This document shows positions 12,054-29,245 of a stretch of DNA of 64,000 bases, piece after piece; the first letter of the stretch is position 1, and each line of letters begins with the position of its first letter. Origin of the DNA: an uncultured Gammaproteobacteria bacterium (GTDB lineage: Bacteria > Pseudomonadota > Gammaproteobacteria > Eutrophobiales > Eutrophobiaceae); the NCBI GenBank assembly GCA_958295485.1, contig OY282354.1, positions 2,083,417 through 2,147,416 of the forward strand, read 5' to 3'. Both the position numbers and the translations under genes were made by a program. Under the pieces are notes generated by a model, which saw only the letters and a program-made list of their open reading frames with translations, was not told the DNA's origin and searched no databases.

Positions 12054-13423
12054 AAAATATCGCGAAATCAAATATTCAACAGCCTGTAACCCACCACTGG
12101 CATCCGATGGCCGAGCCGAAGCTGGCCGAACAGTCATCACCCCTGGTATTCGAGCGCGCGGAAGGCGTTTATATCTATGACACTGAAGGGAAGCGGTACC
12201 TGGATTCACAGGGGGGATTATGGTGCGTGAATGTAGGGCACGGACGTAAAGAAGTGAAAGAAGCCATCAATGCGCAGCTGGATCGACTCCCCTACTACAC
12301 CACCTTTGGCGACACCAGCAATTTGCCCGTCATGGAACTGGCGGAACGGCTGGCGCGTATGCTCGCGCCTGAAGGCATGCAGCGCGTTTTCTTCAGTTCG
12401 GGCGGTTCGGATGCAAACGAAACTGCGCTGAAGCTGGCCCGGCAATACTGGAAACTATCCGGTGAAGCGCAACGGTCAAAATTCATCTCACTGAAACAGG
12501 GGTATCATGGAGTGCATTTTGGCGGGACGTCCATCGGCGGTCAAATGTACCTGCGCTCGATGTACGAACCGGTTCTCCCCGGTTGTTTTCAGGTTGACAC
12601 CCCCTGGTTGTATCGCAACCCCTATTCGGATGATCCCGGGGAATTGGGGAAAATCTGCGCTAATCTGCTTGAGCGGGAGATCGTGCACCAGGGTCCGCAC
12701 ACGGTTGCGGCGTTTATCGCCGAGCCCGTACAGGGCGCCGGCGGCGTGATCGTGCCCCCGGCCAATTACTGGCCCTTAGTCAGGGAAATCTGTGATAAAT
12801 ACGGCGTGTTGCTCATTGCCGATGAGGTGGTCACTGGTTTTGGTCGTAGCGGCAGCATGTTCGGTTGTCGCGGCTGGGGCGTCAAACCCGACATTATCTG
12901 CCTGGCAAAAGGCATCAATTCCGGTTATATCCCCTTAGGCGCGACGGTGGTTAATGAGCGCGTGCGACAAGCCTGGGATGCCGATCATCCGCTGGCGGCC
13001 ATCCTGCATGGCTACACCTACTCGGGTCATCCGGTTGCCTGCGCCGCCGCCAATGCCGCCTTGCAAATTGTGGAAGATGAAGATTTGCCGGCGAACGCCG
13101 CCCGAGTGGGTAGCTATTGCCTGGCCAAATCAGAGAAGGAGTTCGCCGATTATGAATTTGTCGGTGATGTCAGGGGGAAAGGCCTGATGATGGCTATCGA
13201 GTTGGTTACAGACAAAATATCAAAAGAACCTTTCAGGCCGGACGATCCCTTTCTTGAACTTATTCAGGATTTGACGCGCAGGGAAGGCTTGCTGATCAGG
13301 AACCTGGGCTCAAACCTGATCATCTCGCCACCACTTGTTTTTACCAAAGAAAATGTTGACGAAATGACAGGCATGATCGCCAATGCTTTTAACCAGGCAA
13401 AATCAAAATTCAACAAGCGTTGA
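12050..13423 (+). CDS. class-III (omega) aminotransferase, PLP-dependent
   Basis: Motifs GGLWCVNVGHG, DEVVTGFGRSG and AKGINSGYIPLG; the Lys in AKG is the PLP lysine context. It is translationally coupled to the ligase. Confidence 0.85.
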   Translation: MKNIAKSNIQQPVTHHWHPMAEPKLAEQSSPLVFERAEGVYIYDTEGKRYLDSQGGLWCVNVGHGRKEVKEAINAQLDRLPYYTTFGDTSNLPVMELAERLARMLAPEGMQRVFFSSGGSDANETALKLARQYWKLSGEAQRSKFISLKQGYHGVHFGGTSIGGQMYLRSMYEPVLPGCFQVDTPWLYRNPYSDDPGELGKICANLLEREIVHQGPHTVAAFIAEPVQGAGGVIVPPANYWPLVREICDKYGVLLIADEVVTGFGRSGSMFGCRGWGVKPDIICLAKGINSGYIPLGATVVNERVRQAWDADHPLAAILHGYTYSGHPVACAAANAALQIVEDEDLPANAARVGSYCLAKSEKEFADYEFVGDVRGKGLMMAIELVTDKISKEPFRPDDPFLELIQDLTRREGLLIRNLGSNLIISPPLVFTKENVDEMTGMIANAFNQAKSKFNKR

Positions 13424-15564: not shown

Positions 15565-15850
15565 CTATGTGGGTAATGTTAATATCACTCCTTCATTTAT
15601 CAAGGCCAGGAAGAAAAGAGAGAGCGCTTCCGGGTCTGAATTGATGAAATTTTCAAAGGTCGGTTTTTCACCGGAAAGGAATAATTGTAGCATCGGGCCA
15701 ATTTGATTGATATGACAGGGAATGTCGCGCGTCTGAAAAGCCTGACGAATGCCCCGGGCCAGCCTCTCGCCAATTTCAAAAAGAAGCATATACTGGTTAT
15801 CCGCTTCCAGGTCGCGATACGTATTTATGGCGCCGATTGATGCTGCCGGG
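15565..15850 (-). pseudogene. remnant of the C-terminal end of a class-III aminotransferase (HemL/GSA-aminomutase-like), about 90 codons with no N-terminus
   Basis: Open frame ...GAINTYRDLEADNQYMLLFEIGERLARGIRQAF...INQIGPMLQLFLSGEKP...FFLALINEGVILTLPT resembles only the last quarter of class-III aminotransferases. The frame is closed by a TAA at 15871-15873. Its 5' end runs into the intergenic repeat copy at 15841..15945. Confidence 0.5.
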
Positions 15851-15945
15851 CGAAAAGGCTTTGCATACTGCTTATAAACAGGTAATATTTAACTCGATTT
15901 GGTACCAAAACCGTTAACGGGCGCTAATATTTGTCGCTGATACGC
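15841..15945 (-). repeat. copy A of the same intergenic repeat of about 100 bp (contains the perfect palindrome TTTGGTACCAAA at 15898-15909)
   Basis: The reverse complement aligns with 29138-29245. It overlaps the 5' end of the aminotransferase remnant. Confidence 0.7.
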
Positions 15946-16035
15946 ATTGCAGCCGCTCGGCATTCACTGGCGGCGTGAGCGACGCCCGCGGCGCAACGAA
16001 CACAACGCGAAACGACACAGGACCCCACGCACGCG

Positions 16036-16497
16036 ATGGATATACAAGGTGAATACCACATAGCGGCGTCACCCACCGAGGTCTGGCAACGGCTCATAGA
16101 CCCCGACGTGCTGTCGGCCTGCATCCCCGGATGCGAGTCGATGACGAGGGCGTCGGAGGATGCCTATGACTGCGCCGTCATGGCGAAGTACGGCCCCGTC
16201 AAGGCGAAATTCAAGACCACCCTGACCTTGTCGAACATCAACGCGCCCGTGTCCTACACCTTGAGCGGGCGCGGCCAGGGCGGCGCGGCAGGGTTCGGAG
16301 AAGGCGTCGCCGACGTCATGCTCGAGGAAACCAGCGACGGAACGGCGTTGCGCTATACCGCCAGGTTCAATGCGGGCGGGCGCATCGCGCAGGTCGGATC
16401 GCGTCTGATCGTGGCGACCACGCGCAAGTTCGCCGACAAGTTTTTCGCGGCCTTTTCATCGGGTTTCGATGTCGCGGCGGATGACGCGACTGCGTAA
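16036..16497 (+). CDS. coxG: CoxG-like SRPBCC carrier protein of molybdenum hydroxylases
   Basis: 153 aa, with the [19 protein letters not shown] motif characteristic of the CoxG family. Confidence 0.75.
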
Positions 16498-16553
16498 ATC
16501 ATTCGGACATAATTCGCGAGAATACAGGGCCTTTGGCCGGGGGAGGAACAACA

Positions 16554-17012
16554 ATGAAAGTCTCGTTTTCAGTCAATGGCGCGGAGCTCAGCGGGGACGT
16601 GGAACCGCGCACCCTGCTGGTTGATTTTCTCCGCAACGACCTCGGTCTGACCGGCACGCACGTGGGCTGTGACACCAGCCAATGCGGCGCCTGCGTCGTT
16701 CACTTGGACGGCCGCTCCATCAAGAGCTGCACCCTGCTCGCAGTACAAGCCGAGGGCATGCAGGTTACGACTATCGAGGGCCTGGCCGACGGCGACGCGC
16801 TGCATCCCATGCAGGCCGCATTTCGCGAAGAGCACGGCTTGCAATGCGGGTTTTGCACACCCGGCATGATCATGAGCGCGATCGACCTGTTGCAGAACAA
16901 CGCAGCTCCGACGGAAAAGGAGATCCGGGACTGGCTGGAAGGCAACCTGTGCCGATGCACGGGCTATCAGAACATCGTCAAGTCGATACAAACAAACGCG
17001 AAATCGCAGTAA
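16554..17012 (+). CDS. [2Fe-2S]-binding small subunit of a xanthine-dehydrogenase/CO-dehydrogenase-family molybdenum hydroxylase (CoxS-like)
   Basis: Cys clusters CDTSQCGAC and CGFCTPG...CRCTGY. Start is set at MKVSF, with a GGGAGGAA Shine-Dalgarno sequence 5 bp upstream. Confidence 0.85.
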
Positions 17013-17054
17013 GATCCGCCTTCGCACCCACAACCAGGCAAGAGGAAACAAATC

Positions 17055-17849
17055 ATGTACCAGTTCGATTATCAGGCGCCCGACTCGCTCGAAGCCGCGT
17101 TGGCGGCGTTGCGCGAGAATGACGAGGCGAAGATCGTTGCCGGCGGCATGACGCTGTTACCGACGATGAAGCTGCGTTTGGCGCGTCCCGAGGCGCTGAT
17201 CGACATCAACCGCATCGGATCGCTCGCCGGGGTCACGGAGAAAAACCGGGCGATCGTGATCGGCGCTATGACGCGTCATGCCGATGTTGCCGCCTCGAAG
17301 CTCGTACGGGACCGCATCCCCGGTCTCGCAGACCTGGCGGAGACGATCGGGGATCCCCAGGTGCGAAACCGCGGCACAATAGGTGGCTCTGTCGCCAACA
17401 ACGATCCGGCGGCGGACTATCCTGCCGGGCTTGTCGGTCTCGGCGCGACGGTCGTCACCGACCGCCGCGAGATCGCGGCCGACGATTTCTTCACCGACAT
17501 GTTCGAAACCGCGCTCGAGGCCGACGAGATCATCACCGCCGTGCACTTTCCGATTCCCAAACGCGCCGCCTACATGAAGTTTCCCAATCCCGCCTCGCGC
17601 TACGCTATTGTCGGCGTCATGGTGGCGGAGACCCACGACGGGATCCGCGTCGCGGTCACCGGGGCCGCGCCCTGCGTGTTTCGGGTGACGGCAATGGAGG
17701 ATGCGCTCAAGAAGGATTTCACGCCGGACGCCATCGCGCCGATCGCAGTGGACGGCGCCGAATTTAACGAGGACATTCACGCCAGCGCCGAATATCGCGC
17801 CCATCTCGTGAACGTGATGGCCAGGCGCGCAGTGGCTGCGGTGGGCTAG
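17055..17849 (+). CDS. FAD-binding medium subunit of the molybdenum hydroxylase (CoxM-like)
   Basis: FAD-binding fold [13 protein letters not shown] and [15 protein letters not shown], in the molybdopterin-dehydrogenase FAD-binding family. Confidence 0.8.
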
Positions 17850-17852
17850 AAC

Positions 17853-17882
17853 AACGGTCTCGGCGGACTCGCGACCGTTTTC
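17853..17882 (+). terminator. candidate terminator hairpin after coxGSM
   Basis: AACGGTC-13 nt-GACCGTT followed by TTTCG. The loop is long, so this call is weak. Confidence 0.25.
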
Positions 17883-17926
17883 GATGACCTACGGCCGGAC
17901 ATCGTCGTGACGGCGGTCTGCCGGCC

Positions 17927-18436
17927 TCAGTCGGCGGGCACGTGCGCGATGAGCTGTATCTCTACCAGGCCCCTGTCCGGGAACAATTCACTGATGCCGA
18001 TCGCCGTCCAAGCCGTGTACGGCGCCGGCAGGTATTCATCCTTTACAGCCATGAACGCGCCGACGTGCGCGCCCTTGTCGCCGTCGAAATGGGGGCTGTC
18101 GAAGACGTGGAAGGTCGTGAGCTTTACGACCTGATCGAATCTCGCGCCGGCAGCGGTCAGCGTCGCCTTGATCGCCGAGAAGGCCTTATGGAGACTTTCC
18201 TGGAACTCTTCCGGCGTGGCGGGATTGTCCCCCGGCGGCTCGGCCACGACGCCGGAGAGGAACAGGAAGTCGCCCGCACGGTAGGCGGGAGAAAAATGGT
18301 ATTGATCATAGAGCTCCATATCCTGGCTCGTGGCTATGATCGCCTCACCACTCGCGCCGGCCTTGTTGAAATTGTCATCCGCCGCGAGGGTTGTCGCGAA
18401 CAGCATTGCAGCTGCCATCAGTACTAATCGGTTCAT
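17927..18436 (-). CDS. RidA/YjgF-family protein with an N-terminal signal peptide (predicted periplasmic)
   Basis: Start set at MNRLVLMAAAMLFATTLAADD (hydrophobic signal), preceded by a GGGAG Shine-Dalgarno sequence. The C-terminal part aligns with the RidA fold (VKLTTFHV...EIQLIAHV). Confidence 0.65.
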   Translation of the reverse strand: MNRLVLMAAAMLFATTLAADDNFNKAGASGEAIIATSQDMELYDQYHFSPAYRAGDFLFLSGVVAEPPGDNPATPEEFQESLHKAFSAIKATLTAAGARFDQVVKLTTFHVFDSPHFDGDKGAHVGAFMAVKDEYLPAPYTAWTAIGISELFPDRGLVEIQLIAHVPAD

Positions 18437-18476
18437 CACACGCTCCCATAATAGATGCTTTTCAGATGGTTCGAGA

Positions 18477-18863
18477 TCAGGCCTTGGCGGCGATAAGCTC
18501 GACCTCGACCAGCCATTCCTGCTTCGCCAGCGCCTTGACGATAATGCCCGTGGAAGCGGGCCGCGCATCACCCAGGAACTTGGCGCGGGCCTGCGCCATC
18601 GGCCAGAAGTCGTCCTCGCTCGTCACGTAGGTCGTTACTTTGACGATATCATCGATCCCCATGCCGGCGGATTCCAGAATGGCCATGAGATTGCTCCAGG
18701 TGGCTTGAGTCTGGGCCTCGATTCCTTCGGGCATCGTGCCGTCGGGCAACAGGCCTACCTGTCCTGCGGTGTGGAGGACTCGCGAGTTTGGTGGGATCTC
18801 AATGCCGTGGCTGTAGGCTGCGACCGGCGGCGCGATCGTGTCGGGCATATGTTTCTTGTTCAT
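18477..18863 (-). CDS. RidA/YjgF/TdcF-family enamine/imine deaminase
   Basis: 128 aa: PVAAYSHG...HTAGQVGL...VKVTTYV...EVELIAA is classic RidA. Confidence 0.8.
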   Translation of the reverse strand: MNKKHMPDTIAPPVAAYSHGIEIPPNSRVLHTAGQVGLLPDGTMPEGIEAQTQATWSNLMAILESAGMGIDDIVKVTTYVTSEDDFWPMAQARAKFLGDARPASTGIIVKALAKQEWLVEVELIAAKA

Positions 18864-18954
18864 GGGACCTCCCTTGATTGTGACTGGTAAGATGATATTT
18901 TTGGGCTACTTCGCGGCGCGTTGTGGGCATCCGGCGCGGATTTTCGACCCGCGC

Positions 18955-19356
18955 TCAATCGAGCAGCGCGATGCACTCGATCTCAATCATCAGCTCCGGA
19001 AAGGCCAGGCTGGCGCAGCCGATCCAGGTCGCGGCGGGTGGCGCGGACGCCGCTTCCTCGTAGAACCCAATGCGAATGTCGTTGTTGGCTACCAGCGCCC
19101 CCATGTCGGTAGTGAAGACGGTTTCCTTGATCACGTTCTGGAAGCTCGCGCCGTTGGCTTCCAGTGTTTCCTTGAGATCAGTGTAGACCTGCTTGATCTG
19201 TGCCTTCATGTCGCCCGCGCCGATGATATTTCCCTCGGCGTCCCAGCTAACGGCGCCCGAGACGTACAACATGTTCCCGGCCTTGCAGGCCTGCGCATAG
19301 TAGATGCTTTTCTCGATGTTGGGGCGCTTGTGATAGATCTGGTTGGCTTTGGGCAT
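18955..19356 (-). CDS. RidA-family protein (third paralog)
   Basis: 133 aa: YVSGAV...VFTTDM...IEIECIAL, matching the RidA/Rid family fold pattern. Confidence 0.7.
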   Translation of the reverse strand: MPKANQIYHKRPNIEKSIYYAQACKAGNMLYVSGAVSWDAEGNIIGAGDMKAQIKQVYTDLKETLEANGASFQNVIKETVFTTDMGALVANNDIRIGFYEEAASAPPAATWIGCASLAFPELMIEIECIALLD

Positions 19357-19479
19357 GGTGATTCCTCCGAATTATCGTTCTCTCATTAACTTTGACGGAC
19401 TGAAGCGCCGGGCGGGGTCGGTGACCCCGCCCGCCCGCATCGAGAATTTACACGCGTTAGCGGCTCGCACCGGGCTTCG

Positions 19480-21960
19480 TTAGAAGTTGATGCGCAGCGA
19501 TCCCGAGAACCACCTCGGGCGATTGAAGAAGCACTGGCGGCTGTTGAAGTCCTGTCCGACATCGTAGATCTGTGTGCAGAAGAACTGATTGCCGATATTG
19601 TGGACCATAAACGCCGCCTCCCAGCGGCCGTCTTCGCTGGCATAGCTGGCGCGCGCGTTGCCGACCACGTAGGCCTCCTGCTCTCCGATGGGCGCTTCCG
19701 ATAAGAGCATGTTCTGGTCGCTACGGTAATTGAAATCCGCCTGCACGGCGAAGTGGCCCCCTAAGCCGGTGTTTTCAAACGCGACAGGCCACTGGTAGCG
19801 CACCAGGCCGTTGACGGACCACTTCGGCGCTCTCGGAAGTTCCCGATCAAGCGGCTGGGTAAACTCACGGCCAGTGTTTGGATCGGTGAACGGGAAAGTG
19901 ACGTCATAGACTTCTCCCTGCAAGTACCCCACGCCGCCCTTGAAATTCAGGCCCTCCACCGGCGAGCCCTCGATTTCGAGTTCAGCGCCGTAGATTTCGG
20001 CGTCCTGGTTGGATATCAGGTTCGCCTGGCCTTCGAAAATGAAGGCCTGGAAATCATCGTAGTCGTAGTAGAACGCGGCCCCGTTCACGCGTAAGCGGTT
20101 ATCCCACAGGGTTTGCTTGAAGCCGATTTCGTAGGCCTTGAGTATCTCTTCCTTGATCGGAACCTGCTCGGGCCTTAACGCATCGCCCACCGCCGACCCA
20201 TTGAAGCCGCCGCCCTTGACGCCACGGTTGAAAGTGAAGTACGTCAGCAGGTCATCATTGACCTGCCAGTCAAGCCCTACCTTGGCTGACCACAGGCCCT
20301 TATCGTAGACGGCGAGGTCGCCGGCTGAATCTTTGTTGTGTACGACTAAGAAAGCAGCGGGTTCAGCAGGACTCAAGAAACCTCTTGGCTCGTCGGCCGG
20401 CCAGATGTCGAGCAGATAGGTGTAGTCGATGTCTTTTTCCTCTTCGATCCAGCGGAAGCCGGTGGTCAGCGTCAACTGGGGCGTCAGGTCGAACTCGGTT
20501 TGGGCGAATATCGAATACGAATCCGTATCCTGTTCCCAGAACGCAGACGCGACGAGGATGCCCGCATCATGCGACGTGGGTTGCAGACCGCAGGTCTGGG
20601 GTAAATCTTCGAACTGCCCTCCCCCAAAGCAAGGAATTTCGAGGCCTGCCTCGCCGACCAGCGAATTAGCCGGTGATATAGAACCTACTGTTTGAGGGCT
20701 GGGCTCGGCGCCGATCGTCCCTACGTCGGAACGTAACGTGACACCCGTGCCGTAGTCGCCACGAATACGCAGGTAGTAACCCCCCGCCACCCAGCGAACG
20801 CGCTCCATCTCCCCGCTCAAACGGATCTCCTGCGAGAATTGCTCGACGTCGTTCGCCAGAAAGGTTTCCAGGACAGGAAACGGCGTGTTGTCGCTGTCCT
20901 CCATGTACTCTTTATCGACGTGGTACCAGTCGGTGATCGAGACGAAATCGAAGTTTTCGGCGTCCACATCAAGGCGGGCACCGCCGCCCCAGGTGTGCAG
21001 GTCGGAGAACCCGATGAAGTCGTGGCTTACCGTTCGTCTGCCGTCTTCCGGTTCCGCCCAACCAAAGAAATCGCAGCCGGGACAATTTACCGCATTGTCC
21101 ACCCCGGTGTTACTGGTGACTTCGTTTGGTCCTCTCACGAAACCGAATCCGGTGTCCGGATCGAAGCTGGCTGGCTGAGTGTATGCGGCGCCGTCGATGA
21201 GCTCGCTGGAAGACCCGCGGCCGTTGAGAAGGAGGCTCACGTTTTCGCTGAACTCGTATAGAACCTGTCCGCGAAACGAAGCTGTGTTATCGTCGAACTG
21301 GTCCGTTCCGACGTTGTTTGTGGCATAGGCGTCGTGCCAATTCCCTGTGCCAGAGAAGCGGACGGACATACGGTCGGTAAGACCACCGCCGATCCCGAAC
21401 TCCATACCCTTGTTATCGTATGAACCATATTTGGCTTCGGCGTACGCCTCGAATTCCTGTGACGGCTTGTTGGTGGTGAACGATATGGCGCCGCCGGTGG
21501 CGTTCCTGCCCCACAGCGTACCCTGCGGCCCGCGCAGGATTTCGACCTGCTCCAGGTCGAAGAGCTGGAAACCCGAAGCAGAGGCCTGGCTGACGTACGC
21601 CTCGTCGACATAGACCGCGGTCGGGTGCTCCTGGTGATCGGCGAAATCGACCTGGAGGACGCCGCGCACGGAGAAACCGTAGGACTGGCGGGAGTTGGGC
21701 TGCACGAGCTGCACGCCGGGCGCCATGTCGGGTACCATCGTTGTATCCAGCATGCCGAGTTGGCGAACCTGATCGCCCGACAAGGCGGTGATGGCGATAC
21801 CGACATTCTGCAGGTTCTCCGCGCGTTTCTGCGCAGTGACGACGATCTCTTCCAACACTTGCGCGCCGGCGTTCATGCCGACCAGCAATAAAGTCGTTGC
21901 AAGGATTGAGATGAGCGGTACGGAATTCGGGCGCGTTTGCCCGGATGTCTGTTGATTCAT
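19480..21960 (-). CDS. TonB-dependent receptor
   Basis: Signal peptide, then LEEIVVTAQKRAENLQNVGIAITAL and VEILRGPQGTLWGRNATGG, ending ...GSLRINF (terminal aromatic). Confidence 0.9.
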   Translation of the reverse strand: MNQQTSGQTRPNSVPLISILATTLLLVGMNAGAQVLEEIVVTAQKRAENLQNVGIAITALSGDQVRQLGMLDTTMVPDMAPGVQLVQPNSRQSYGFSVRGVLQVDFADHQEHPTAVYVDEAYVSQASASGFQLFDLEQVEILRGPQGTLWGRNATGGAISFTTNKPSQEFEAYAEAKYGSYDNKGMEFGIGGGLTDRMSVRFSGTGNWHDAYATNNVGTDQFDDNTASFRGQVLYEFSENVSLLLNGRGSSSELIDGAAYTQPASFDPDTGFGFVRGPNEVTSNTGVDNAVNCPGCDFFGWAEPEDGRRTVSHDFIGFSDLHTWGGGARLDVDAENFDFVSITDWYHVDKEYMEDSDNTPFPVLETFLANDVEQFSQEIRLSGEMERVRWVAGGYYLRIRGDYGTGVTLRSDVGTIGAEPSPQTVGSISPANSLVGEAGLEIPCFGGGQFEDLPQTCGLQPTSHDAGILVASAFWEQDTDSYSIFAQTEFDLTPQLTLTTGFRWIEEEKDIDYTYLLDIWPADEPRGFLSPAEPAAFLVVHNKDSAGDLAVYDKGLWSAKVGLDWQVNDDLLTYFTFNRGVKGGGFNGSAVGDALRPEQVPIKEEILKAYEIGFKQTLWDNRLRVNGAAFYYDYDDFQAFIFEGQANLISNQDAEIYGAELEIEGSPVEGLNFKGGVGYLQGEVYDVTFPFTDPNTGREFTQPLDRELPRAPKWSVNGLVRYQWPVAFENTGLGGHFAVQADFNYRSDQNMLLSEAPIGEQEAYVVGNARASYASEDGRWEAAFMVHNIGNQFFCTQIYDVGQDFNSRQCFFNRPRWFSGSLRINF

Positions 21961-22022
21961 GGTCAGCTATCCCCCAATGTTGATTCTGAACGGCAAAAAA
22001 ATTGATCTGGTCCTTGTCAATG

Positions 22023-22166
22023 TTTTGGTACCAAATCGATAAAAATAGTACCACTTCATCTGAATATAGCACACACGATCGGAGGAATACAACTTTTTTG
22101 GTACTTAATCGATAAAAAAAGTACCATATCGTCCGGACATATCACAAACGACCGGGGGAATACTAC
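22023..22166. repeat. tandem direct repeat, two copies of about 72 bp, each starting with a TTTGGTAC(C/T)(A/T)AATCGATAAAAA..GTACCA motif
   Basis: Unit 1 (22023-22094) and unit 2 (22094-22166) align at about 75% identity. A third, inverted partial core (TGGTACCA) is at 22213-22220. All lie in the divergent intergenic region between the receptor/RidA operon and the PQQ/coxL operon. Confidence 0.7.
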
Positions 22167-22290
22167 TCATAAGGCGCTGTATACGGACCATCGGGTAATT
22201 TTTTACTCGATATGGTACCAAAAACGTTATATACTTACGACACGACCCTGGAGGTCGCCATCTGAAAATACGCAACTGGGAGATCGAACC

Positions 22291-24213
22291 ATGAGCAATC
22301 GGCGCCTGTTACATCTGTTAACCCTGTTTGGAATCCTCTTCGCGGCGACGTCGGTGTCAGCCGATATGGAAGCGGCCCCGCCGCCGCCTCCCGGAACCAA
22401 ATTTAACGTGCTCAACAGACCGTCGGGAGAACCGAACGCCGCCGTGATCTACGCCCAACGTTGCGCCGAATGCCATGCGCGCGCCTTTTTTTCGCCGACC
22501 GTAGAACAGATGTCGAACCTGACCCCGGAAGAGGCGCACAAGGAATTGACGTGGGGCGTCATGATGGAGTTCGCCAATGGCCTGGACGATTTTGAGCGCT
22601 GGGAGTTGGCCAAGTTCGTAACCAGTTTCAAAAAAGACAGCGAAAGAGACCCGCGCGGCCACGGCGCCAAAATGTGCAAGGATAAAACGCCGCTGGTGGC
22701 CGATGCCGAGCATGACTGGCCTGGATGGTCCAAGGACAACAGCTTCCACGCGAATGCGACCAATTCGAAGTTCACCGCCGCGAGCGTGAAAAACCTCAAG
22801 CTCAAGTGGGCCGTGGGGTTTCCGCAGGTCCATTCGTTCGTTAGTGGCGGGCACAAGGTCTCCGTCGTCGGCGACCGCATATTCGTGGGTAGTCTCAACC
22901 ACTGGGTCTACTCGTTCGATGCGGACTCCGGCTGCGCGCACTGGGCGTTCCAGGCTGAATTTCGGATTCGATCGAACGTCACCGTGCGCGATGGCATCGC
23001 TGTATTCGGCGATACCGGGGCGAACGCCTACGCAGTGAACGCGGAAACAGGCCAGCTGCTCTGGCGCAAAAAAGTAGACTGGACGCCGACCTCCCGCGTT
23101 TCGGGTAACATTACGGTGCACGACGGCGTCGTCTACGTGCCCATATCCAACTACCAGGAAGTGCTCAACATGGGTGGCAGAACCCTGGAATTCCCGTGCT
23201 GTACGGCTCGCGGCTCAATCTCCGCCTTTGACCTGCATACGGGTGAGCGCAAGTGGAAGACCTATACCATCGACCAGAGATCCGAGTTTATAGGCACGAC
23301 GAAAAACGGCGTGAATCGCTATGGCCCCTCCGGCGTTACGGTGTTCTCGGCGATCACAGTCGACGACAAGCGCGGCCTTTTGTACGTGCCGACCGCGAAC
23401 CAGCAGACCGAACCGGTCATTCCCGAATCCGACTCCGTGATCGCGCTCGACATGAAAACGGGCGCCAAGGTTTGGGTCAAAGGACTGGCGCCCGAGCAAT
23501 TTGGCGGCCAGGACGTCTACCACCTGGGCTGCGAAGCGTGGGTCGATGGCGAGCGGAAAACCTGCTCGCCCTTGAACCCGAAGGGACAGGGTGACCGGGA
23601 TATCGTGGCGCCCGTTATACTGGTGGAACGATCGGACGGCAAGGAGGTCCTCATGGCCGGCTCCAAGGACGGCATGCTTTACGCGTTGGACCCGGACGCC
23701 AAAGGAGAAATCCTGTGGCAGACCCGCCTCGGCAGGGGTGGGGAAGTCGGCGGCATCCAGTGGGGCTTTTCGAGCGATGGCAAGAATGCTTACGTTCCCG
23801 TCCAGGATATGGATGCGGACATGTTGGCGGACGGCTCGTTCACGGCGGTCGATCTCCTGACCGGAAAACAAGTATGGCGCGTCGAGAAAATGACGCCCGA
23901 CTGTGAGGGTAAGCCGGCGCCGCCGTGCAGCAATGCCTTTGGCTTGCCCAGCACCGTGGCGAACGACGTCGTTTTCACGGGCTCCGCGGACGGCTTGTTG
24001 CGCGCCTATAAGAAGGCGACCGGGAAGCTGGTGTGGAGCTTCGATACGGCGCGCGACTATGAAACCGTCAATGGCATCAAGGGCTACGGCGGGGGTCTGG
24101 GCTACGGCGGGCCGGTCATCGTGAAGGATAAATTGTTTGTGACATCCGGCAACGACTATGCGCAGTTCGCTATGCCCGGGAACGTCCTGCTCATGTTCGA
24201 GCTCGACGAATAA
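22291..24213 (+). CDS. periplasmic PQQ-dependent dehydrogenase with an N-terminal c-type cytochrome domain (quinohemoprotein; polyvinyl-alcohol-dehydrogenase-like architecture)
   Basis: Signal peptide MSNRRLLHLLTLFGILFAATSVSA. A single CXXCH (CAECH) sits about 60 residues from the N-terminus. At least five PQQ beta-propeller repeats of the A-D-x-x-TG-x-x-W type follow (AVNAETGQLLW, ALDMKTGAKVW, AVDLLTGKQVW, AYKKATGKLVW). Confidence 0.75.
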   Translation: MSNRRLLHLLTLFGILFAATSVSADMEAAPPPPPGTKFNVLNRPSGEPNAAVIYAQRCAECHARAFFSPTVEQMSNLTPEEAHKELTWGVMMEFANGLDDFERWELAKFVTSFKKDSERDPRGHGAKMCKDKTPLVADAEHDWPGWSKDNSFHANATNSKFTAASVKNLKLKWAVGFPQVHSFVSGGHKVSVVGDRIFVGSLNHWVYSFDADSGCAHWAFQAEFRIRSNVTVRDGIAVFGDTGANAYAVNAETGQLLWRKKVDWTPTSRVSGNITVHDGVVYVPISNYQEVLNMGGRTLEFPCCTARGSISAFDLHTGERKWKTYTIDQRSEFIGTTKNGVNRYGPSGVTVFSAITVDDKRGLLYVPTANQQTEPVIPESDSVIALDMKTGAKVWVKGLAPEQFGGQDVYHLGCEAWVDGERKTCSPLNPKGQGDRDIVAPVILVERSDGKEVLMAGSKDGMLYALDPDAKGEILWQTRLGRGGEVGGIQWGFSSDGKNAYVPVQDMDADMLADGSFTAVDLLTGKQVWRVEKMTPDCEGKPAPPCSNAFGLPSTVANDVVFTGSADGLLRAYKKATGKLVWSFDTARDYETVNGIKGYGGGLGYGGPVIVKDKLFVTSGNDYAQFAMPGNVLLMFELDE

Positions 24214-26579
24214 TGACTGAGATTGGAAAATCTGTACGGCGTAAGGAAGACCGGCGCTTCATCACGGGCGCGGGAACATACACGAGCGATGTCCAGTATT
24301 CCGACCAGGCCTATCTCTATATCGTCCGCGCGCAAACTGCACATGCCCGGATACGCAACATCGACGCATCGGCGGCACGGGCTGCGGCAGGCGTTGTTGC
24401 CGTCTACACTGCCGCGGATCTCGATGCCGGCGGGATAGGCGATATGCAGCCGGCCTGGATCATGTACAACCCTGATGGCTCTCCAATGCATGAAGCCCCG
24501 CGTGAAGCATTGGCGCGTGAGCGCATCCGCTATGTCGGGCAGCCGGTAGCGGCTGTGATCGCTGAATCCGGTCTTCTTGCGAAAGACGCAGCCGAACTAA
24601 TCGAACCCGATCTCGAGGAATTGCCTGCCGTTGCGAACCTGGCCGACGCGACCATTGCAAATGCCCCGAAGGTTTGGGACCACATCTCTGCCAACCAATG
24701 CTTCGAGTGGATCATCGGCAATACTGAAGCGGTAGCTGAGGCATTCGCGTCGGCTGCTCGAATTGTAGAGGTTGACATCGTTCAAAATCGCCTGACGCCC
24801 AATGCGCTCGAACCGCGCGCTGTTATCGCCCTTCATGATGCGAGCAACGATGAATTTACGCTTCATGCGGCGTGCCAGAATCCACATCTTCTACGGACTT
24901 GGACGTGCGCAAATTCGTTGCCGGTTCCGGAATCCAGACTCCGGATCATTTCGGCTGACGTTGGCGGTGGTTTCGGCGCCAAGATTTATCAGTATTCAGA
25001 GGACCTGGTTGCCTTGTTTGCAGCCAAGGCTTTGGGTCGACCGGTGAAATGGGTGGCTGAACGTAGCGAAGCCTTCGTTTCCGATGCCCACAGCCGCGAT
25101 CATGTAACTCATGCCACCCTGGCGCTGGACTCCGATGGAAAGTTTTTGGCCCTGCGTGTTGATACTGATGCCAATTTGGGCGCGGCGCTATCGCAATACG
25201 GCGCCGCCATTCCTACCGTTTTCTACGCCACCATGGTTTCGGGTGTTTACAAGATTCCAGCTATCGCAATAAGAGTACGCGGCATAATGACGAATACGGT
25301 GCCGGTGGACGCATACCGTGGGGCCGGACGCCCGGAAGCGACGTATTTGGTGGAACGTCTGGTCGACCTCGCTGCGGAGGCAACCGGCATCGACCGCGTC
25401 GAGATCAGGCGACGAAATTTCATTCAGCCGTCGGACTTCCCGTACCAGACGCCCCTGGGACTCGTTTATACCGAAGGCGCGTACGATCAATGCGTCGACC
25501 GCGCATTGGAAAACGCAGACATGAAAGGGTACGACGCACGCAAGGCGGCATCACAGGCCGCCGGCAAGCTGCGTGGGTTAGGCATAATCGCGTATACCGA
25601 GCAAGCCGGCGCGGCGCCTTCCCAGGCGGCGATTGCTTTCGGCGCGGGACACGCATTTTTCGAGGTTGCGACGGTCCGGGTAAATCCGGATGGATCGGTG
25701 CGCGTCCTTACCGGCGCGCACAGCCACGGACAGAGTCACGAGACGACGTTTGCCCAAATCGTTTCGGATCAACTTGGCTTGCCCCTGGACGAGATCGAAG
25801 TAATCCACGGTGATACCAGTCAACTGCCGTTCGGCATAGGAACATACGCATCACGCTCAATCAGCGCCGGCGGCAGCGCAGTACTCCTAAGCGCCGGGAA
25901 AATCATCGCCAAGGGCAAAAAGATCGCGGCGCATATGCTTGAAAGCAATGCCGACGACATCGAATTCATCGACGGGTTCTTCAAACACAAGGATGCGGTC
26001 CATAGCATGTCATTCAAAGAAATTGCGCGCCAAGCGTATGTTCCGGGGAACTATCCATTGGAGCAGCTCGAGCCTGGGCTTGAAGAAACCACCTTCTTCG
26101 ACCCACCGAACTTCACTTTTCCTGCCGGCTGTCACATTTGCGAGGTCGAAATCGATCCGGAGACCGGCGAGACAAGGGTCGATCGTTACACCGTCTTCGA
26201 TGATTTCGGCGTGGTGATCAATCCGATGGTCGTGCATGGTCAGGTTCATGGCGGCCTTGCCCAGGGCATTGGTCAGGCGCTTCTCGAAAACGCCGTATAC
26301 GATGCCGATTCAGGCCAGCCGTTGAGCGCGTCCTTCCTTGATTACACTATGCCGCGCGCGGATGATCTGCCAACATTCGAAGTTTCGGAATTAGATGCGA
26401 TCTCGATATCAAATCCGTTAGGCGCCAAGGGCGCCGGTGAGGCAGGAACCATTGGCGCGCCGATTACCGTCATGAACGCCATTTTCGATGCGCTCAAACC
26501 CATCGGTGTCACCGACCTTTCAATGCCGGCGACACCTACAAAGATCTGGGCGGCTATTCAAGCGGCAAACACTGCCTAG
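24213..26579 (+). CDS. molybdopterin-binding large subunit of a xanthine-dehydrogenase-family hydroxylase (CoxL-like, form II motif AYRGAGR)
   Basis: 788 aa with GGGFGAK and VPVDAYRGAGRPEA motifs. The start ATG overlaps the stop of the PQQ gene (TAATG). Confidence 0.85.
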   Translation: MTEIGKSVRRKEDRRFITGAGTYTSDVQYSDQAYLYIVRAQTAHARIRNIDASAARAAAGVVAVYTAADLDAGGIGDMQPAWIMYNPDGSPMHEAPREALARERIRYVGQPVAAVIAESGLLAKDAAELIEPDLEELPAVANLADATIANAPKVWDHISANQCFEWIIGNTEAVAEAFASAARIVEVDIVQNRLTPNALEPRAVIALHDASNDEFTLHAACQNPHLLRTWTCANSLPVPESRLRIISADVGGGFGAKIYQYSEDLVALFAAKALGRPVKWVAERSEAFVSDAHSRDHVTHATLALDSDGKFLALRVDTDANLGAALSQYGAAIPTVFYATMVSGVYKIPAIAIRVRGIMTNTVPVDAYRGAGRPEATYLVERLVDLAAEATGIDRVEIRRRNFIQPSDFPYQTPLGLVYTEGAYDQCVDRALENADMKGYDARKAASQAAGKLRGLGIIAYTEQAGAAPSQAAIAFGAGHAFFEVATVRVNPDGSVRVLTGAHSHGQSHETTFAQIVSDQLGLPLDEIEVIHGDTSQLPFGIGTYASRSISAGGSAVLLSAGKIIAKGKKIAAHMLESNADDIEFIDGFFKHKDAVHSMSFKEIARQAYVPGNYPLEQLEPGLEETTFFDPPNFTFPAGCHICEVEIDPETGETRVDRYTVFDDFGVVINPMVVHGQVHGGLAQGIGQALLENAVYDADSGQPLSASFLDYTMPRADDLPTFEVSELDAISISNPLGAKGAGEAGTIGAPITVMNAIFDALKPIGVTDLSMPATPTKIWAAIQAANTA

Positions 26580-26633
26580 GGCTGGGTCGCAGGTAATTCA
26601 GAAATCGCCACCGACAGGACTCGGTTCCGGATC

Positions 26634-27320
26634 TCACCGTGGCAAGCGCGAGTCTGCTCTCGGATAAATGTGACGCCGCGCGGACCGCGACAAGTTGAAC
26701 GTCTCCCTCTCAAGTCGCTCGCTGCGAGGCATGAGCGAGTGCAGGAGCATTTCGTAGAGCTCGTGGAATGCCTCGGAGATCGTCAGGCCCGTGGAATCGC
26801 TGAAGTCAGGTTCACGCAATCGGTTGATGCTGGCGAACACGATTTCGGCGACGAACGCCGGTAGTACCTCCCGGAAGACGCCGGCCTTGACGCCGTTGTC
26901 GATAATCCGGCACATGCCGTCGATGCGCAGGCTGATGTGTTCCCGCCAAAGCGTTCGCGCCGGTTCCCATTCGTGAATGTCGGCGACCACAGCCTGGCTC
27001 AACCGCTCGGCGGCGCGCGCCCCAACCTCAAGATATTCATAGACCTGACGTTCCGGATCCAAGGTGTTATCGGTCAAATGGTCGGCTTCTTGCCTGATGC
27101 GGCTGAAAAAGTTGTCCAGGGCCTTCAGCACCAGCATCTTCTTGCTCGGGGCGAGCTCATAGAGGGTGCGCTTCGAGCACTTGAGACGCGCGGCGATCTT
27201 CGAGACATTGAGCCGCGAGAACCCCTCGGCAAGGATGAGCGCTTCAAATGCTTCGAGAGTATCTGCCCGGCGCTTGTTGATCGGAGCGCTACGGGAGTTA
27301 TGGAAGTGCATGGTCGACAT
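26634..27320 (-). CDS. TetR-family transcriptional regulator
   Basis: N-terminal HTH LNVSKIAARLKCSKRTLYELAPSKK, with a TetR-like helical C-terminal domain. Confidence 0.75.
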   Translation of the reverse strand: MSTMHFHNSRSAPINKRRADTLEAFEALILAEGFSRLNVSKIAARLKCSKRTLYELAPSKKMLVLKALDNFFSRIRQEADHLTDNTLDPERQVYEYLEVGARAAERLSQAVVADIHEWEPARTLWREHISLRIDGMCRIIDNGVKAGVFREVLPAFVAEIVFASINRLREPDFSDSTGLTISEAFHELYEMLLHSLMPRSERLERETFNLSRSARRHIYPRADSRLPR

Positions 27321-27515
27321 ATTCGAATTATATCCGAATGATTAACGCGATTCCACCGCTCGTCGTAACCCGTGAACTACTCGATCCCGGCAATGCGCCG
27401 ATTCGATATTGCGTCAACGGTGAATTGCCTCAGGACGGCAACGCGGAGCTCCTGATGTTCGATGTCCCGACTTTACGGCGTCAGCCGGCGGTAGATGTCG
27501 GCGACTGATTGGTTG

Positions 27516-29039
27516 TTATTCATACTCCTGCTCCATTTCCCGTAGTTTTGTCTTCAGCACCTTGCCGTAGTTGCTCTTGGGCAGACTGTCCACCGCACGA
27601 TAAAACCTGGGGCGCTTGAAGCGCGCGATATTTTCGATGCAGAAATTATCCAGGGACTTTTTATCAATCTTTTCGGCCGTCGATGTAACCACGTAGGCAA
27701 TGACAACCTCACCCCATTCGCGATCGGGTCGGCCGATAACCGCTACCTCCGACACGTCAGGATGCTTGATCAGGACTTCTTCCACTTCACGTGGATAGAT
27801 ATTTGTTCCCCCGGAGATGATCAGGTCTTTTGAGCGATCCTTCAGGGTCAGGAAGCCTTCCTCGTCAAAACATCCGTAATCGCCCGTGTGCAACCAGCCG
27901 TTGCGCAAGGTTTCCTCACTCGCTTCCGGATTACGCCAGTATCCGTTCATAACGCTTTCTCCCCGCACCAGCACCTCTCCCACTTCCCCTGTGGGAAGCC
28001 AGTCCCCTTCCGTGTTGGCGACGCGTACCTGGACTGCGCTCTGTGGCGTGCCCACCGATGAAAGCCTCTGGCGCCAGCGGGGATGATCTTTCTCTGCATG
28101 TATGCGCGAACTCAAGGCGGTGATGGTCATGGGGCTCTCCCCCTGACCGTATAGTTGCGCGAGCTTTGGTCCGTATCGTTCCAGTCCGGCAAGACAATCC
28201 TCCAGATACATGGGACCGCCGCCGTAGATAATGGTTTTCAGGTTGGTGGTGTCGGTATCGACCGGATGATCCAGCAGTCGTTTCACCATGGTCGGGGCGG
28301 CAAAAAATACTGCGGCGGGCCAGGATTCGATCAAGTGATAAATCTCTTCAACATCAAATCCACCGGTTTCCGGGATCACGTGACAACTTGCCTGCATGAC
28401 ATGGGCGAGCGCATAAACACCTGAACCGTGGCTCATGGGCGCCGCATACAGGATTGCCCGCCAGGGAGATTCCTGGTCGACATCCGCAAAATAACAAAAC
28501 GACGTGGCAAGCAGGTTGCGATGACTGAGTACCGCGCCTTTTGGTTTGCCCGTAGTGCCGCTGGTGTAAAACAACCAGGCGGGATCCCGTGGTTCGCGGG
28601 AAACCATGGGTAAAGGATCACATTCAAATAACCGCTGATAATCCCGGGCGGAAACGTCAACGACAGCTTCGAGCGTTTCCCCCGCAAGCAGGGGAGCTAT
28701 GGTCTCGACGAGAGCGCGCGTGGCAAAACAGAGCTTTGCCTGGCTGTTTTCCAGGATATAAGCGAATTCGTTTTGGTGAAATTTGGCATTGACCGGTACG
28801 GTGACCAGTCCTGCATGCCAGCACGCATACAGAATCTCCAGATACTCCGGGCAATTACTCATCGCCAAGACGACGCGATCTCCCTGCTCGAGTTTGAAAT
28901 GCCCGGTCAATGCGAAGGCGAGACGGGATACGCGTTCCGCCATTTCACTGTATGTTCGCAAAACCGTGGAGCCTTTTGCTATAGCAGGATACTCCGAGAA
29001 AGCGCTCCCGGATCGTTGCATGTGTATCGCTATGTTCAT
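27516..29039 (-). CDS. AMP-dependent acyl-CoA synthetase/ligase
   Basis: Motifs FYTSGTTGKPKGAVLSH and YGQGESP, about 507 aa. Confidence 0.85.
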   Translation of the reverse strand: MNIAIHMQRSGSAFSEYPAIAKGSTVLRTYSEMAERVSRLAFALTGHFKLEQGDRVVLAMSNCPEYLEILYACWHAGLVTVPVNAKFHQNEFAYILENSQAKLCFATRALVETIAPLLAGETLEAVVDVSARDYQRLFECDPLPMVSREPRDPAWLFYTSGTTGKPKGAVLSHRNLLATSFCYFADVDQESPWRAILYAAPMSHGSGVYALAHVMQASCHVIPETGGFDVEEIYHLIESWPAAVFFAAPTMVKRLLDHPVDTDTTNLKTIIYGGGPMYLEDCLAGLERYGPKLAQLYGQGESPMTITALSSRIHAEKDHPRWRQRLSSVGTPQSAVQVRVANTEGDWLPTGEVGEVLVRGESVMNGYWRNPEASEETLRNGWLHTGDYGCFDEEGFLTLKDRSKDLIISGGTNIYPREVEEVLIKHPDVSEVAVIGRPDREWGEVVIAYVVTSTAEKIDKKSLDNFCIENIARFKRPRFYRAVDSLPKSNYGKVLKTKLREMEQEYE

Positions 29040-29137
29040 ATCCGGCCAGTCAAAACGCTGGACCTCGATCTAACGATGCGTTCATTGCTTTTGGGTGTTC
29101 GATCAGAATTTCCTCTTGTCGGTCGTGCGGGTCAATG

Positions 29138-29245
29138 GGCATAAGCGAATACTATTAGCGCTGACTAAGGTTTATGGTACTAAATCAATTTAAATATTAC
29201 CTGCTTATAAGCAGTATGCAAAACCTTTTTGTCTGGCAGCATCCC
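29138..29245 (+). repeat. copy B of an intergenic repeat of about 100 bp (TATTAGCGC...TGGTAC.AAATC..TTAAATATTACCTG.TTATAAGCAGTATGCAAA.CCTTTT...GGCAGCATC)
   Basis: Aligns at about 85% with the reverse complement of 15841-15945. Confidence 0.7.

Follow-up and report, generated by a model that had tools for sequence, protein, structure and literature searches.

The window analysed here is a stretch of 64,000 nucleotides (nt) from an uncultured bacterium of the Gammaproteobacteria (family Eutrophobiaceae; assembly GCA_958295485.1, contig OY282354.1, positions 2,083,417 to 2,147,416). Between 15.84 and 29.24 kb it holds the genes for a molybdenum (Mo) enzyme of the xanthine-oxidase family, with the small and medium subunits CoxS and CoxM encoded in one operon and the large subunit CoxL in another. 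These lie together with genes for a TonB-dependent receptor, three Rid-family proteins, a secreted pyrroloquinoline quinone (PQQ)/haem dehydrogenase, a TetR-family protein and an acyl-coenzyme A (CoA) synthetase. We read this region of ~13 kb as one discrete catabolic gene island with four transcription units that is kept across related genomes, and to this reading, taken together with the pathway proposed below, we give even chances. The hosts are a group of uncultured marine Gammaproteobacteria.

All the genes that an earlier note on this DNA had mapped were recovered at the same positions in the list of open reading frames (ORFs) and by Pfam and NCBIfam scans. They are listed below by transcription unit, with protein lengths in amino acids (aa).

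Unit 1, plus strand, coxG-coxS-coxM
16036-16497, plus strand: coxG, SRPBCC/CoxG family, 153 aa, PF06240 (E 2e-33)
16554-17012, plus strand: coxS, 152 aa, PF01799 and PF00111, two [2Fe-2S] clusters; the mechanical ORF begins at TTG 16533
17055-17849, plus strand: coxM, medium subunit binding flavin adenine dinucleotide (FAD), 264 aa, PF00941 and PF03450, ratio of nonsynonymous to synonymous substitution rates (dN/dS) 0.18
Unit 2, minus strand, 17927-21960, TonB receptor-rid3-rid2-rid1
19480-21960, minus strand: TonB-dependent outer-membrane receptor, first gene of the operon, 826 aa, PF07715 and PF00593
18955-19356, minus strand: rid3, cytoplasmic, 133 aa, PF01042, Ala at the catalytic Arg position with a Trp nearby (alignment)
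18477-18863, minus strand: rid2, cytoplasmic, 128 aa, PF01042, Ser at the catalytic Arg position (alignment to PH0854 and YabJ)
17927-18436, minus strand: rid1, start at 18436, ~169 aa, secreted, YjgH-like/Rid7 type, PF01042, Trp at the catalytic Arg position
Unit 3, plus strand, 22291-26579, PQQ/haem dehydrogenase-coxL
22291-24213, plus strand: PQQ gene, 640 aa, signal peptide, N-terminal cytochrome c domain and 8-bladed propeller like that of PQQ alcohol dehydrogenases, polyvinyl alcohol dehydrogenase (PVADH) type
24213-26579, plus strand: coxL, molybdopterin-binding large subunit of form II type, 788 aa, with Pfam, NCBIfam and PDB matches
Unit 4, minus strand, acyl-CoA synthetase(-tetR)
26634-27320, minus strand: tetR, TetR family, PF00440 and PF17935, candidate repressor
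27516-29039, minus strand: acyl-CoA synthetase, AMP-forming, 507 aa, PF00501 and PF13193, with a copy of the motif described below upstream

Relatives of the locus were collected with a profile of the PQQ protein, which was scanned against 185,579 species genomes and yielded 79 loci, on which the proteins of the window were then mapped. Loci are cited by handles such as L001.

The likely true start of coxS is the ATG at 16554. The expected cofactor motifs are present in CoxS, CoxM and CoxL, and Pfam domains cover CoxL over its full length (Ald_Xan_dh_C, E 3e-24; MoCoBD_1, 2e-70; MoCoBD_2, 4e-91). CoxL has the sequence AYRGAGR at residue 367 and GAGEAG at residue 740, the latter presumably the C-terminal G-x-G-E motif with the catalytic Glu. 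The active-site loop reads AYXCSFR in form I carbon monoxide (CO) dehydrogenases and AYRGAGR in form II cox enzymes (PMC13203968). The loop and a score of 600 against a cutoff of 991 on the NCBIfam model TIGR02416 agree with the earlier view that the large subunit is form-II-like and no true CO dehydrogenase. For S, M and L alike the top NCBIfam model is the archaeal Mo-dependent glyceraldehyde dehydrogenase, with all three below cutoff (635 versus 790 for CoxL). Among solved structures, the relatives of CoxL include CO dehydrogenases as well as quinoline 2-oxidoreductase, at 449 bits, and 6-hydroxypseudooxynicotine dehydrogenase, at 413 bits. Neither a signal peptide nor a Tat motif was found at the N-termini of CoxS and CoxL, and none in CoxM either; the Mo enzyme is therefore predicted to be cytoplasmic. 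CoxS is 66-75% identical to the CoxS proteins of canonical clusters. The form II gene order coxS-coxL-coxM is not followed here: the order is coxG-coxS-coxM, and coxL lies in another operon 6.4 kb downstream (6.36 kb from the end of coxM to the start of coxL), which bears out the separation reported before. No further homolog of CoxS, CoxM or CoxL was found within the 64-kb window. In CO dehydrogenase, CoxG provides a link to quinone; coxG is the variable member of the locus and occurs, among close relatives, only in the window and in L004.

The signal peptide and haem motif of the PQQ protein were likewise confirmed, the former being of Sec type (MSNRRLLHLLTLFGILFAATSVSA) and the latter CAECH at residues 58-62. 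Cys58, Cys61 and His62 are invariant in 60 homologs of the protein, and so is a vicinal Cys-Cys pair, which is also kept in a plasmid-encoded protein of Sphingopyxis sp. 113P3. To that protein, which is probably PvaA, the PQQ protein is 32% identical over 630 residues, end to end (E 1e-90). Its AlphaFold (AF2) model shows a helical haem domain at the N-terminus and a propeller of eight blades (predicted local distance difference test, pLDDT, 90.4; predicted template modelling score, pTM, 0.90). In Foldseek, every one of the best solved structures is a PQQ alcohol or methanol dehydrogenase (E 1e-29 to 1e-22, 13-18% identity), and the JGI name for homologs is 'polyvinyl alcohol dehydrogenase (cytochrome)'. 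An assignment as type II quinohaemoprotein alcohol dehydrogenase was considered and rejected, given the N-terminal position of the haem domain, which in type II enzymes is C-terminal, and a TIGR03075 score of 77 against a cutoff of 480. From these features the protein is classed as a PVADH-type periplasmic quinohaemoprotein (EC 1.1.2.6 family) with putative PQQ binding. No gene for an oxidised-PVA (polyvinyl alcohol) hydrolase was found in the block and no pqq biosynthesis genes were seen within the 64-kb window.

The receptor is 56-88% identical to its counterparts in relatives. The three proteins of its operon that had been described as RidA proteins all match PF01042, yet the catalytic Arg is absent in all three, and their scores on NCBIfam TIGR00004 (37, 66 and 71 bits) all fall under the cutoff of 106. 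Rid1 has its best PDB match in YjgH (1pf5, E 2e-16) and begins with a signal peptide (MNRLVLMAAAMLFATTLAADD) that is kept in all 11 orthologs inspected. Of the three rid paralogs, it is rid3 that also occurs downstream of PQQ homologs in L015 and L028, two outgroup loci. Imine hydrolysis by RidA requires the catalytic Arg (Arg105 of Escherichia coli TdcF and Salmonella enterica RidA), and Rid4-7-type proteins are considered 'most likely not imine hydrolases' (PMC4433059). By this defining residue, the quenching of imines proposed in the earlier note fails for each of the three proteins (PMC4433059). The acyl-CoA synthetase scores 425 bits against a cutoff of 476 on an NCBIfam model for long-chain-fatty-acid-CoA-ligase-like proteins, and is best described, from its family matches, as a putative generic medium- or long-chain acyl-CoA synthetase.

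The stop codon of the PQQ gene and the start codon of coxL overlap in TAATG, as had been seen before. As a kept feature, co-translation of the two genes did not hold up, the overlap being present only here and in one of eight relatives (L004). The spacers in the seven other orthologous loci are 20, 54, 68, 68, 105, 105 and 792 nt, the last in L008. Because the spacer varies among orthologous loci, translational coupling is not conserved; same-strand adjacency is. The adjacency occurs in three configurations, namely an overlap or short spacer, the 792-nt spacer of L008, where no coxS or coxM lies within 10 kb, and the reversed order coxL-PQQ in L011. Co-location of the PQQ gene with coxL thus extends to related genomes, and the association proposed earlier stands on this point.

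The intergenic region between the receptor and PQQ genes contains repeated GGTAC-rich elements, from which a 30-nt pattern, GGTAMTWTTTWWMTCGATWTGGTACCAAAA, was derived. At ≤3 mismatches this pattern has five matches in the 64-kb window and none in 100 shuffles. The matches, and a second, 25-nt element, are located as follows.

15881-15910, plus strand: motif copy 1, GGTAATATTTAACTCGATTTGGTACCAAAA, 126 nt 5′ of the coxG ATG
22023-22052 and 22096-22125, minus strand: two motif copies toward the receptor, inside a 72-nt tandem duplication
22194-22223, plus strand: motif copy toward the PQQ gene, 68 nt 5′ of the PQQ ATG
29172-29201, minus strand: motif copy 5, 133 nt 5′ of the acyl-CoA synthetase start, in the right arm of a 111-nt inverted repeat
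16492-16516, plus strand: copy of the 25-nt element, GCGTAAATCATTCGGACATAATTCG, in the coxG-coxS spacer, 92% match to the tetR element, -10-like CATAAT
27324-27348, minus strand: 25-nt element with a TATAAT box, immediately 5′ of tetR, kept in L003, L004, L008 and L088

Every copy of the motif faces the gene that it precedes and begins with a -10-like hexamer (TAATAT or TACTAT); a motif placed over such a hexamer would be the arrangement needed by a promoter-occluding repressor. The sites are kept at orthologous positions in L001, L003-L010 and L088, and no copy was found in L011-L081. By site, the PQQ-side copy is kept in L001, L003-L010 and L088 and the ligase-side copy in L005, L007 and L009; the copy of the first operon stands before coxG in L004 and directly before coxS in the coxG-less loci L003, L007 and L009 (L003 by direct reading). 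The tetR gene adjoins coxL in L003-L005, L007-L010 and L088, and the adjacent TetR-family protein is most likely the one that would bind the motif. Since the motif is shared, has the same orientation throughout and keeps its positions in orthologous loci, the four units very probably form a single regulon. The sharing of the motif by both cox operons also makes the distant CoxS and CoxM plausible partners of CoxL, a pairing that the earlier note had raised as a question.

The 72-nt tandem duplication (22023-22167, 81% identity) provides the receptor promoter with two operator-like copies. Two receptor-side copies are also found in L005 and L009, and one in L003, L004 and L006. A sigma-54 promoter reading of the elements (TGGTAC-N-...) was discarded, as the GG-N10-GC spacing was unfit by eye and there was no enhancer-binding protein nearby. 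Scans for terminators and for the sigma-70 consensus gave results no better than shuffles.

The limits of the block are sharp. Nucleotide similarity to relatives is 86-94% over window positions 15848-27360, and also over 27513-29128 where the ligase gene is present; beyond these limits the 4-7 kb flanks of each relative are unrelated to those of the window. A 111-nt inverted repeat (15839-15949 and 29133-29243, 81% complementary) brackets the island; its arms are the promoter/operator regions of coxG and of the acyl-CoA synthetase gene and coincide with the limits of nucleotide homology. Transposon ends were considered for these arms and set aside, as paralogous promoter regions explain them better; no tRNA genes and no integrase were found at the block ends. 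Genes for IclR, MFS and aminotransferase proteins, upstream at 12-15.5 kb, were considered as members of the system and excluded: they are without the motif, have lower GC content at third codon positions (GC3) and are absent from the flanks of relatives, and they fall outside the unit because nucleotide homology to relatives stops at the block limits.

A uniform GC content of about 62% had been read as an argument against recent insertion. Positions 16036-26579 average 58.8%, and both flanks are lower (51.2% on the left, 55.1% on the right). The argument is wrong, for the block is compositionally distinct and relocatable, and coxL itself is deviant: GC3 is 0.74-0.82 in coxG, coxS, coxM, the rid genes, the receptor gene, the PQQ gene and tetR, and the outliers are coxL (0.61) and the downstream ligase gene (0.60). 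Purifying selection acts on every gene of the block (dN/dS 0.13-0.33 versus L005). CoxL, with a dN/dS of 0.175, is for this reason no decaying pseudo-subunit.

The complete layout consists of coxS-coxM, the opposite-strand genes rid1-rid2-rid3-receptor, PQQ-coxL and tetR, usually followed by the acyl-CoA synthetase gene. It is found in L003, L004, L005, L007, L009 and L010, and also in L087, a metagenome-assembled genome (MAG) of the Halieaceae, and in L088, both of which were reached independently via CoxM homologs. The synthetase gene is present in L005, L007, L009 and L010. Complete MAG chromosomes with the island are OZ242169.1, OZ242265.1 and CBDEUD010000003.1. Across the full-layout loci the PQQ protein is 78-97% identical and receptor identity goes down to 56%. 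Outside this clade, none of 70 loci with PQQ homologs has any subunit of the xanthine-oxidase family. Among 18 gammaproteobacterial relatives, the receptor occurs in five and a Rid gene in four, and in L015 and L028 receptor, PQQ gene and rid3 follow one another on one strand. As PQQ loci outside the clade are without Mo subunits and some of them keep the receptor or Rid gene, the combination of receptor, quinohaemoprotein and Rid is, on this distribution, the older and wider module, and the Mo enzyme is a lineage-specific addition.

Several sister genomes have further versions of these genes. L001, L002 and L008 (e.g. L001, 10001-20693) contain two to three paralogous PQQ/haem genes in a row (66-81% identical to that of the window) and a secreted Rid1-type gene; the regions are crowded with IS110, IS4/DDE, IS630-like and rve transposases, and a fragment of the coxL N-terminus lies upstream of one of the PQQ paralogs. 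Hydantoinase/oxoprolinase A and B genes stand beside the receptor-PQQ-Rid module of L028 (5192-7207) and beside an orphan coxL in L085/L086 (3741-7536). A looser co-occurrence of a PQQ propeller with Rid and Mo-related genes was seen in a cultured organism, on plasmid 2 of Aromatoleum aromaticum EbN1 (L093, 168920-182677). There, a PVADH-like gene (33% identical) overlaps the upstream gene of an FAD-binding protein, and RidA-family and MOSC-domain (Mo-cofactor-related) genes lie ~3 kb away across an IS5 element.

The two parts of the Mo enzyme differ in their nearest relatives. Identities to two outgroup clusters of canonical layout are as follows.

S-L-M cluster L082: CoxG absent, CoxS 66%, CoxL 73%, CoxM 57%
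G-S-L-M cluster of Aquibaculum (L089): CoxG 50%, CoxS 75%, CoxL 53%, CoxM 70%

In the search rankings, CoxL has a tight clade at ≥73% followed by matches at ≤61%, and many CoxM homologs at 64-70% outrank the CoxM of L082. The discordance rests on these two outgroup clusters and on the rank order in large CoxL and CoxM searches. Given the discordant identities, the rank orders and the GC3 of coxL, the S/M pair and L appear to come from different cox-type clusters. Sister genomes contain a lone orthologous coxG-coxS-coxM operon (CoxM 85% identical) that is without the motif and has no L gene inside 10 kb. Their coxL genes are orphans in L084 and L085/86 and lie beside PQQ genes in L001, L008 and L011; a 6.3-Mb longest contig is common to four CoxL clusters. 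L084 also has a PQQ gene close to its orphan coxL, but this was rejected as an independent PQQ-coxL link, as the gene product is not homologous to the PQQ protein of the window. Zn-alcohol dehydrogenases, also non-homologous to the PQQ protein, are encoded near related coxL genes in L082 and L085/86. In L090/L091 (8977-10795) the stand-alone, L-less coxG-coxS-coxM adjoins ccmABCDEFGH and a gene for an AsnC-type regulator.

Form II cox genes (xanthine-oxidase family, coxS-coxL-coxM, AYRGAGR) are ubiquitous and very common in marine and soil bacteria; form II CoxL is routinely mis-annotated as CO dehydrogenase, and its role is unresolved, with no agreed function (PMC13203968). The island resembles their clusters in its three-subunit composition, its domain sets and the AYRGAGR loop. 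It differs in that L does not lie between S and M but 6.4 kb away behind a quinohaemoprotein gene, in that S/M and L belong to different cluster lineages, and in that the enzyme is tied to receptor, Rid and ligase genes by a shared motif. Enzymes of the xanthine-oxidase family are already known from catabolic clusters that also have TonB receptors and TetR regulators. The nicotine hybrid (VPP) cluster of Agrobacterium tumefaciens S33 likewise combines a Mo hydroxylase, a Rid-family protein, a TonB receptor, cytochrome c and TetR (PMC7688666). For that cluster ndhAB and pseudoazurin are listed, but no three-subunit CoxSML-type enzyme and no PQQ enzyme, while the Rid proteins of the island are without the catalytic Arg and its block is without genes for pyridine-ring cleavage.

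Two further systems offer parallels for the oxidation of alcohols. The PVA locus of Sphingopyxis sp. 113P3 (plasmid NZ_CP009453) also encodes a PQQ protein with N-terminal CXXCH, propeller and vicinal Cys-Cys, with TonB receptors and an adenylate-forming enzyme nearby, and with cytochrome c in the neighbourhood. The island, in contrast, is without a separate cytochrome c and without a candidate for an oxidised-PVA hydrolase, a Mo enzyme and Rid genes are lacking from the pva locus, and an identity of 32% is too low to infer a shared substrate. The sphingomonad peg operon encodes the TonB receptor PegB, the alcohol dehydrogenase PegA, the aldehyde dehydrogenase PegC and the acyl-CoA synthetase PegE (PMC11644497). 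By analogy only, its logic and compartment order match those suggested for the island, from receptor uptake over alcohol and aldehyde oxidation to CoA activation. The FAD dehydrogenase and NADP aldehyde dehydrogenase of peg are, however, non-homologous to the PQQ/haem and Mo enzymes of the island, and the peg operon, which is without Rid proteins, also encodes a permease and an AraC regulator. The Rid proteins themselves compare with the Rid7 (YjgH-like) and Arg-less Rid subfamilies (Niehaus et al. 2015, PMC4433059) in the Trp of Rid1, its best E. coli match YjgH, and the missing Arg of Rid2 and Rid3. They differ in the conserved Sec signal peptide of Rid1, the terms 'signal peptide' and 'periplasm' being absent from the main text of PMC4433059, and in the linkage of their genes to a quinohaemoprotein and a TonB receptor.

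In a literature search, with most subscription journals outside its coverage, we found no conserved separation of L from S/M with an operator in common, no L and S/M of different lineages beside L-less G-S-M operons or orphan L, no form II CoxL coupled to a PVADH-type quinohaemoprotein and no Arg-less Rid trio with one secreted member. Searches on orphan coxL, and on sponge symbionts together with PVA dehydrogenase, likewise gave nothing relevant.

The two-compartment pathway suggested in the earlier note remains plausible, since export signals are present on the PQQ protein, the receptor and one Rid protein and were not seen on CoxS, CoxL and CoxM. That a periplasmic and a cytoplasmic protein share an operon had been called unusual; operons encoding both are not in themselves unusual. 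In the pathway that we propose, the TonB-dependent receptor would import a scarce or bulky substrate, of which a hydroxyl group would be oxidised in the periplasm by the secreted PVADH-type quinohaemoprotein, whose own haem c domain would carry the electrons off. The Rid protein with Trp, which is the secreted one, may act on or near the product. This product would enter the cytoplasm, where a Mo enzyme would oxidise or hydroxylate it; CoxL would form this enzyme in trans with the CoxS and CoxM encoded 6 kb away, and CoxG, where present, would pass electrons to the quinone pool. The resulting carboxylic acid would then be activated to a CoA thioester. The chemistry would run from alcohol over aldehyde or ketone and acid to acyl-CoA, with CoxSML as aldehyde oxidoreductase. 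That CoxL works with the CoxS and CoxM of this locus we consider somewhat probable. The alcohol-to-acid chemistry is put forward tentatively, and is favoured on account of the co-regulated ligase, the archaeal aldehyde-oxidising enzyme as best model, the alcohol dehydrogenases near related coxL genes and the peg parallel.

A number of points weigh against this pathway. Every relative is an uncultured MAG, so that statements on function beyond sequence features are inferences, as are TetR binding, the assembly in trans, the substrate class and the order of steps. Polyvinyl-alcohol dehydrogenase, which gave the family its name, oxidises secondary alcohols to ketones, not to aldehydes. The receptor/PQQ/Rid modules of the outgroups have no aldehyde-oxidising enzyme and no ligase, the synthetase gene was not found in the fetched DNA of L003, L004 and L008, an inner-membrane transporter is absent from the block, and the three Rid proteins have no assigned part in an alcohol-to-acid scheme. 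The structurally characterised relatives of CoxL include the N-heterocycle hydroxylases Qor and KdhL. As regards the enzyme itself, the nearest relatives of CoxS/M and CoxL are discordant (L089 versus L082), the GC3 of coxL deviates from the rest of the block and the G-S-M operon of L090 has no motif. As ancestry and GC3 differ, the partnership of CoxS/M with CoxL would be secondary and is a candidate one, and each side could pair with subunits encoded elsewhere.

These observations can also be combined differently. CoxG-CoxS-CoxM may be an L-less, generic electron-transfer chassis into which dispersed orphan CoxL proteins of different ancestry plug in trans; one CoxL and one chassis would then have been captured into a TetR-operator regulon around the older module of receptor, PVADH-type protein and Arg-less Rid proteins. 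We hold this for possible but rather doubtful.

The main rival to the alcohol-to-acid pathway is the chemistry proposed in the earlier note, with an N-heterocycle or amine as substrate. The regulon would degrade such an imported compound, the quinohaemoprotein dehydrogenating a C-N bond in the manner of lupanine hydroxylase, the Rid proteins hydrolysing imines or enamines and CoxSML hydroxylating the ring. Quinoline 2-oxidoreductase and 6-hydroxypseudooxynicotine dehydrogenase among the CoxL relatives fit this scheme, as do the ndhAB, rid, TonB receptor, cytC and tetR genes of the S33 nicotine cluster (PMC7688666), the clustering of Rid genes with amine oxidases (PMC4433059) and the existence of a PQQ/haem c enzyme acting on an alkaloid, the listed lupanine hydroxylase (PMC6472588). 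However, it loses the Rid argument, because the Arg essential for imine hydrolysis is missing in all three proteins. The PQQ protein, moreover, belongs to the PVADH lineage and does not have the type II/lupanine hydroxylase architecture, the block has no ring-cleavage or amidase genes, and the co-regulated synthetase is generic and fatty-acid-like. Such a substrate is possible, but no result favours it over the alternatives, and the ligase and alcohol dehydrogenases point at least equally to an alcohol, aldehyde or acid; we regard this rival as unlikely.

Two other explanations appear more improbable still, and to the same degree. The first reverses the last steps: an acid would arise from a (hetero)aromatic alcohol or aldehyde through the PQQ enzyme and be converted to its CoA ester by the synthetase, and CoxSML would hydroxylate the CoA thioester in the manner of 2-furoyl-CoA dehydrogenase or 4-hydroxybenzoyl-CoA reductase. 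Mo-dependent acyl-CoA hydroxylases do exist, the synthetase gene carries the shared motif, acyl-CoA dehydrogenases abound, and a MaoC dehydratase occurs, near the closest CoxL relatives, and subunits of 4-hydroxybenzoyl-CoA reductase are detectable homologs. But the score on the 4-hydroxybenzoyl-CoA reductase model is 376 against a cutoff of 995, the block has no downstream hydratase or thiolase, and PQQ-coxL is intact in the three loci in whose fetched DNA no synthetase gene was found.

The second denies the partnership. CoxG-S-M and CoxL would be neighbours through rearrangement only, CoxL pairing with an S/M encoded elsewhere or CoxS/M serving another L, and the PQQ-coxL adjacency would be a lineage-specific accident. 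The discordant ancestry and the deviant GC3 of coxL would be expected on this view; sister genomes hold G-S-M and PQQ-coxL at separate sites together with several coxL paralogs, the PQQ-coxL link is absent in 70 of 70 more distant PQQ loci, and related regions are rich in insertion sequence (IS) elements. Against this stand the 30-nt motif, which precedes both operons and is kept in relatives, the retention of the split layout down to 56% receptor identity, a PQQ-coxL adjacency that outlasts three rearrangements, and the lack of other S, M or L genes within the 64-kb window.

A genuine aerobic CO dehydrogenase, for which one could cite CO dehydrogenase large subunits among the top PDB and NCBIfam matches and homologs labelled 'carbon-monoxide dehydrogenase', is effectively refuted by the loop motif AYRGAGR in place of AYXCSFR (PMC13203968), in line with the low TIGR02416 score, a gene order that is neither coxMSL nor coxSLM and the lack of coxDEF maturation genes in the block, and has next to no probability left.

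The island sets one form II CoxL in a defined context, in which a cis-element is shared with genes for uptake, for a quinohaemoprotein of the periplasm and for CoA activation, and thereby suggests testable substrates. It is also a tractable case for asking whether large subunits of Mo hydroxylases can pair with heterologous or shared S/M modules. Arg-less Rid proteins (PMC4433059) become linked to PVADH-type quinohaemoproteins, a link that recurs in loci without the Mo enzyme. Should G-S-M indeed serve as a chassis for CoxL proteins of other ancestry, the island would provide the first defined enzymatic partner for Rid4-7-type proteins, including a secreted one, and an instance of modular subunit swapping in the xanthine-oxidase family. 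Should the pathway be wrong, it would still be a clear case of a block of catabolic genes that is relocatable and has an operator in common.

Elsewhere in the window, which has at least five TonB receptor genes, several further regions were noted. A second, unrelated-looking catabolic cluster without the operator motif lies at 5222-13423 and encodes a TonB receptor (37% identical to that of the island), a 655-aa FAD/NAD-binding protein without a family name, an enoyl-CoA hydratase, an acyl-CoA ligase and a class III (omega) aminotransferase. The segment 56001-64000 may be a separate island, with a GC content of 0.43 versus 0.53 for the whole window. It encodes a TonB receptor (57948-60230), an Na+/H+ antiporter-family protein, a LuxR-type regulator and a class III aminotransferase that shares 40% identity with its counterpart at 12050-13423. 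A protein of 1095 aa encoded at 39971-43258 joins a B12-binding domain to a MeaB GTPase and a methylmalonyl-CoA-mutase domain (IcmF-like fused mutase); its gene is followed on the other strand (43252-47762) by genes for FAD-oxidase and Fe-S/CCG proteins resembling the glycolate oxidase GlcDEF. Finally, a 793-aa ORF (47845-50226, plus strand) overlaps an antisense ORF of 436 aa (47833-49143, minus strand), neither with a Pfam match; the kilobase in which the two lie has the highest GC content (0.637) and the strongest AT skew (-0.26) of the window.

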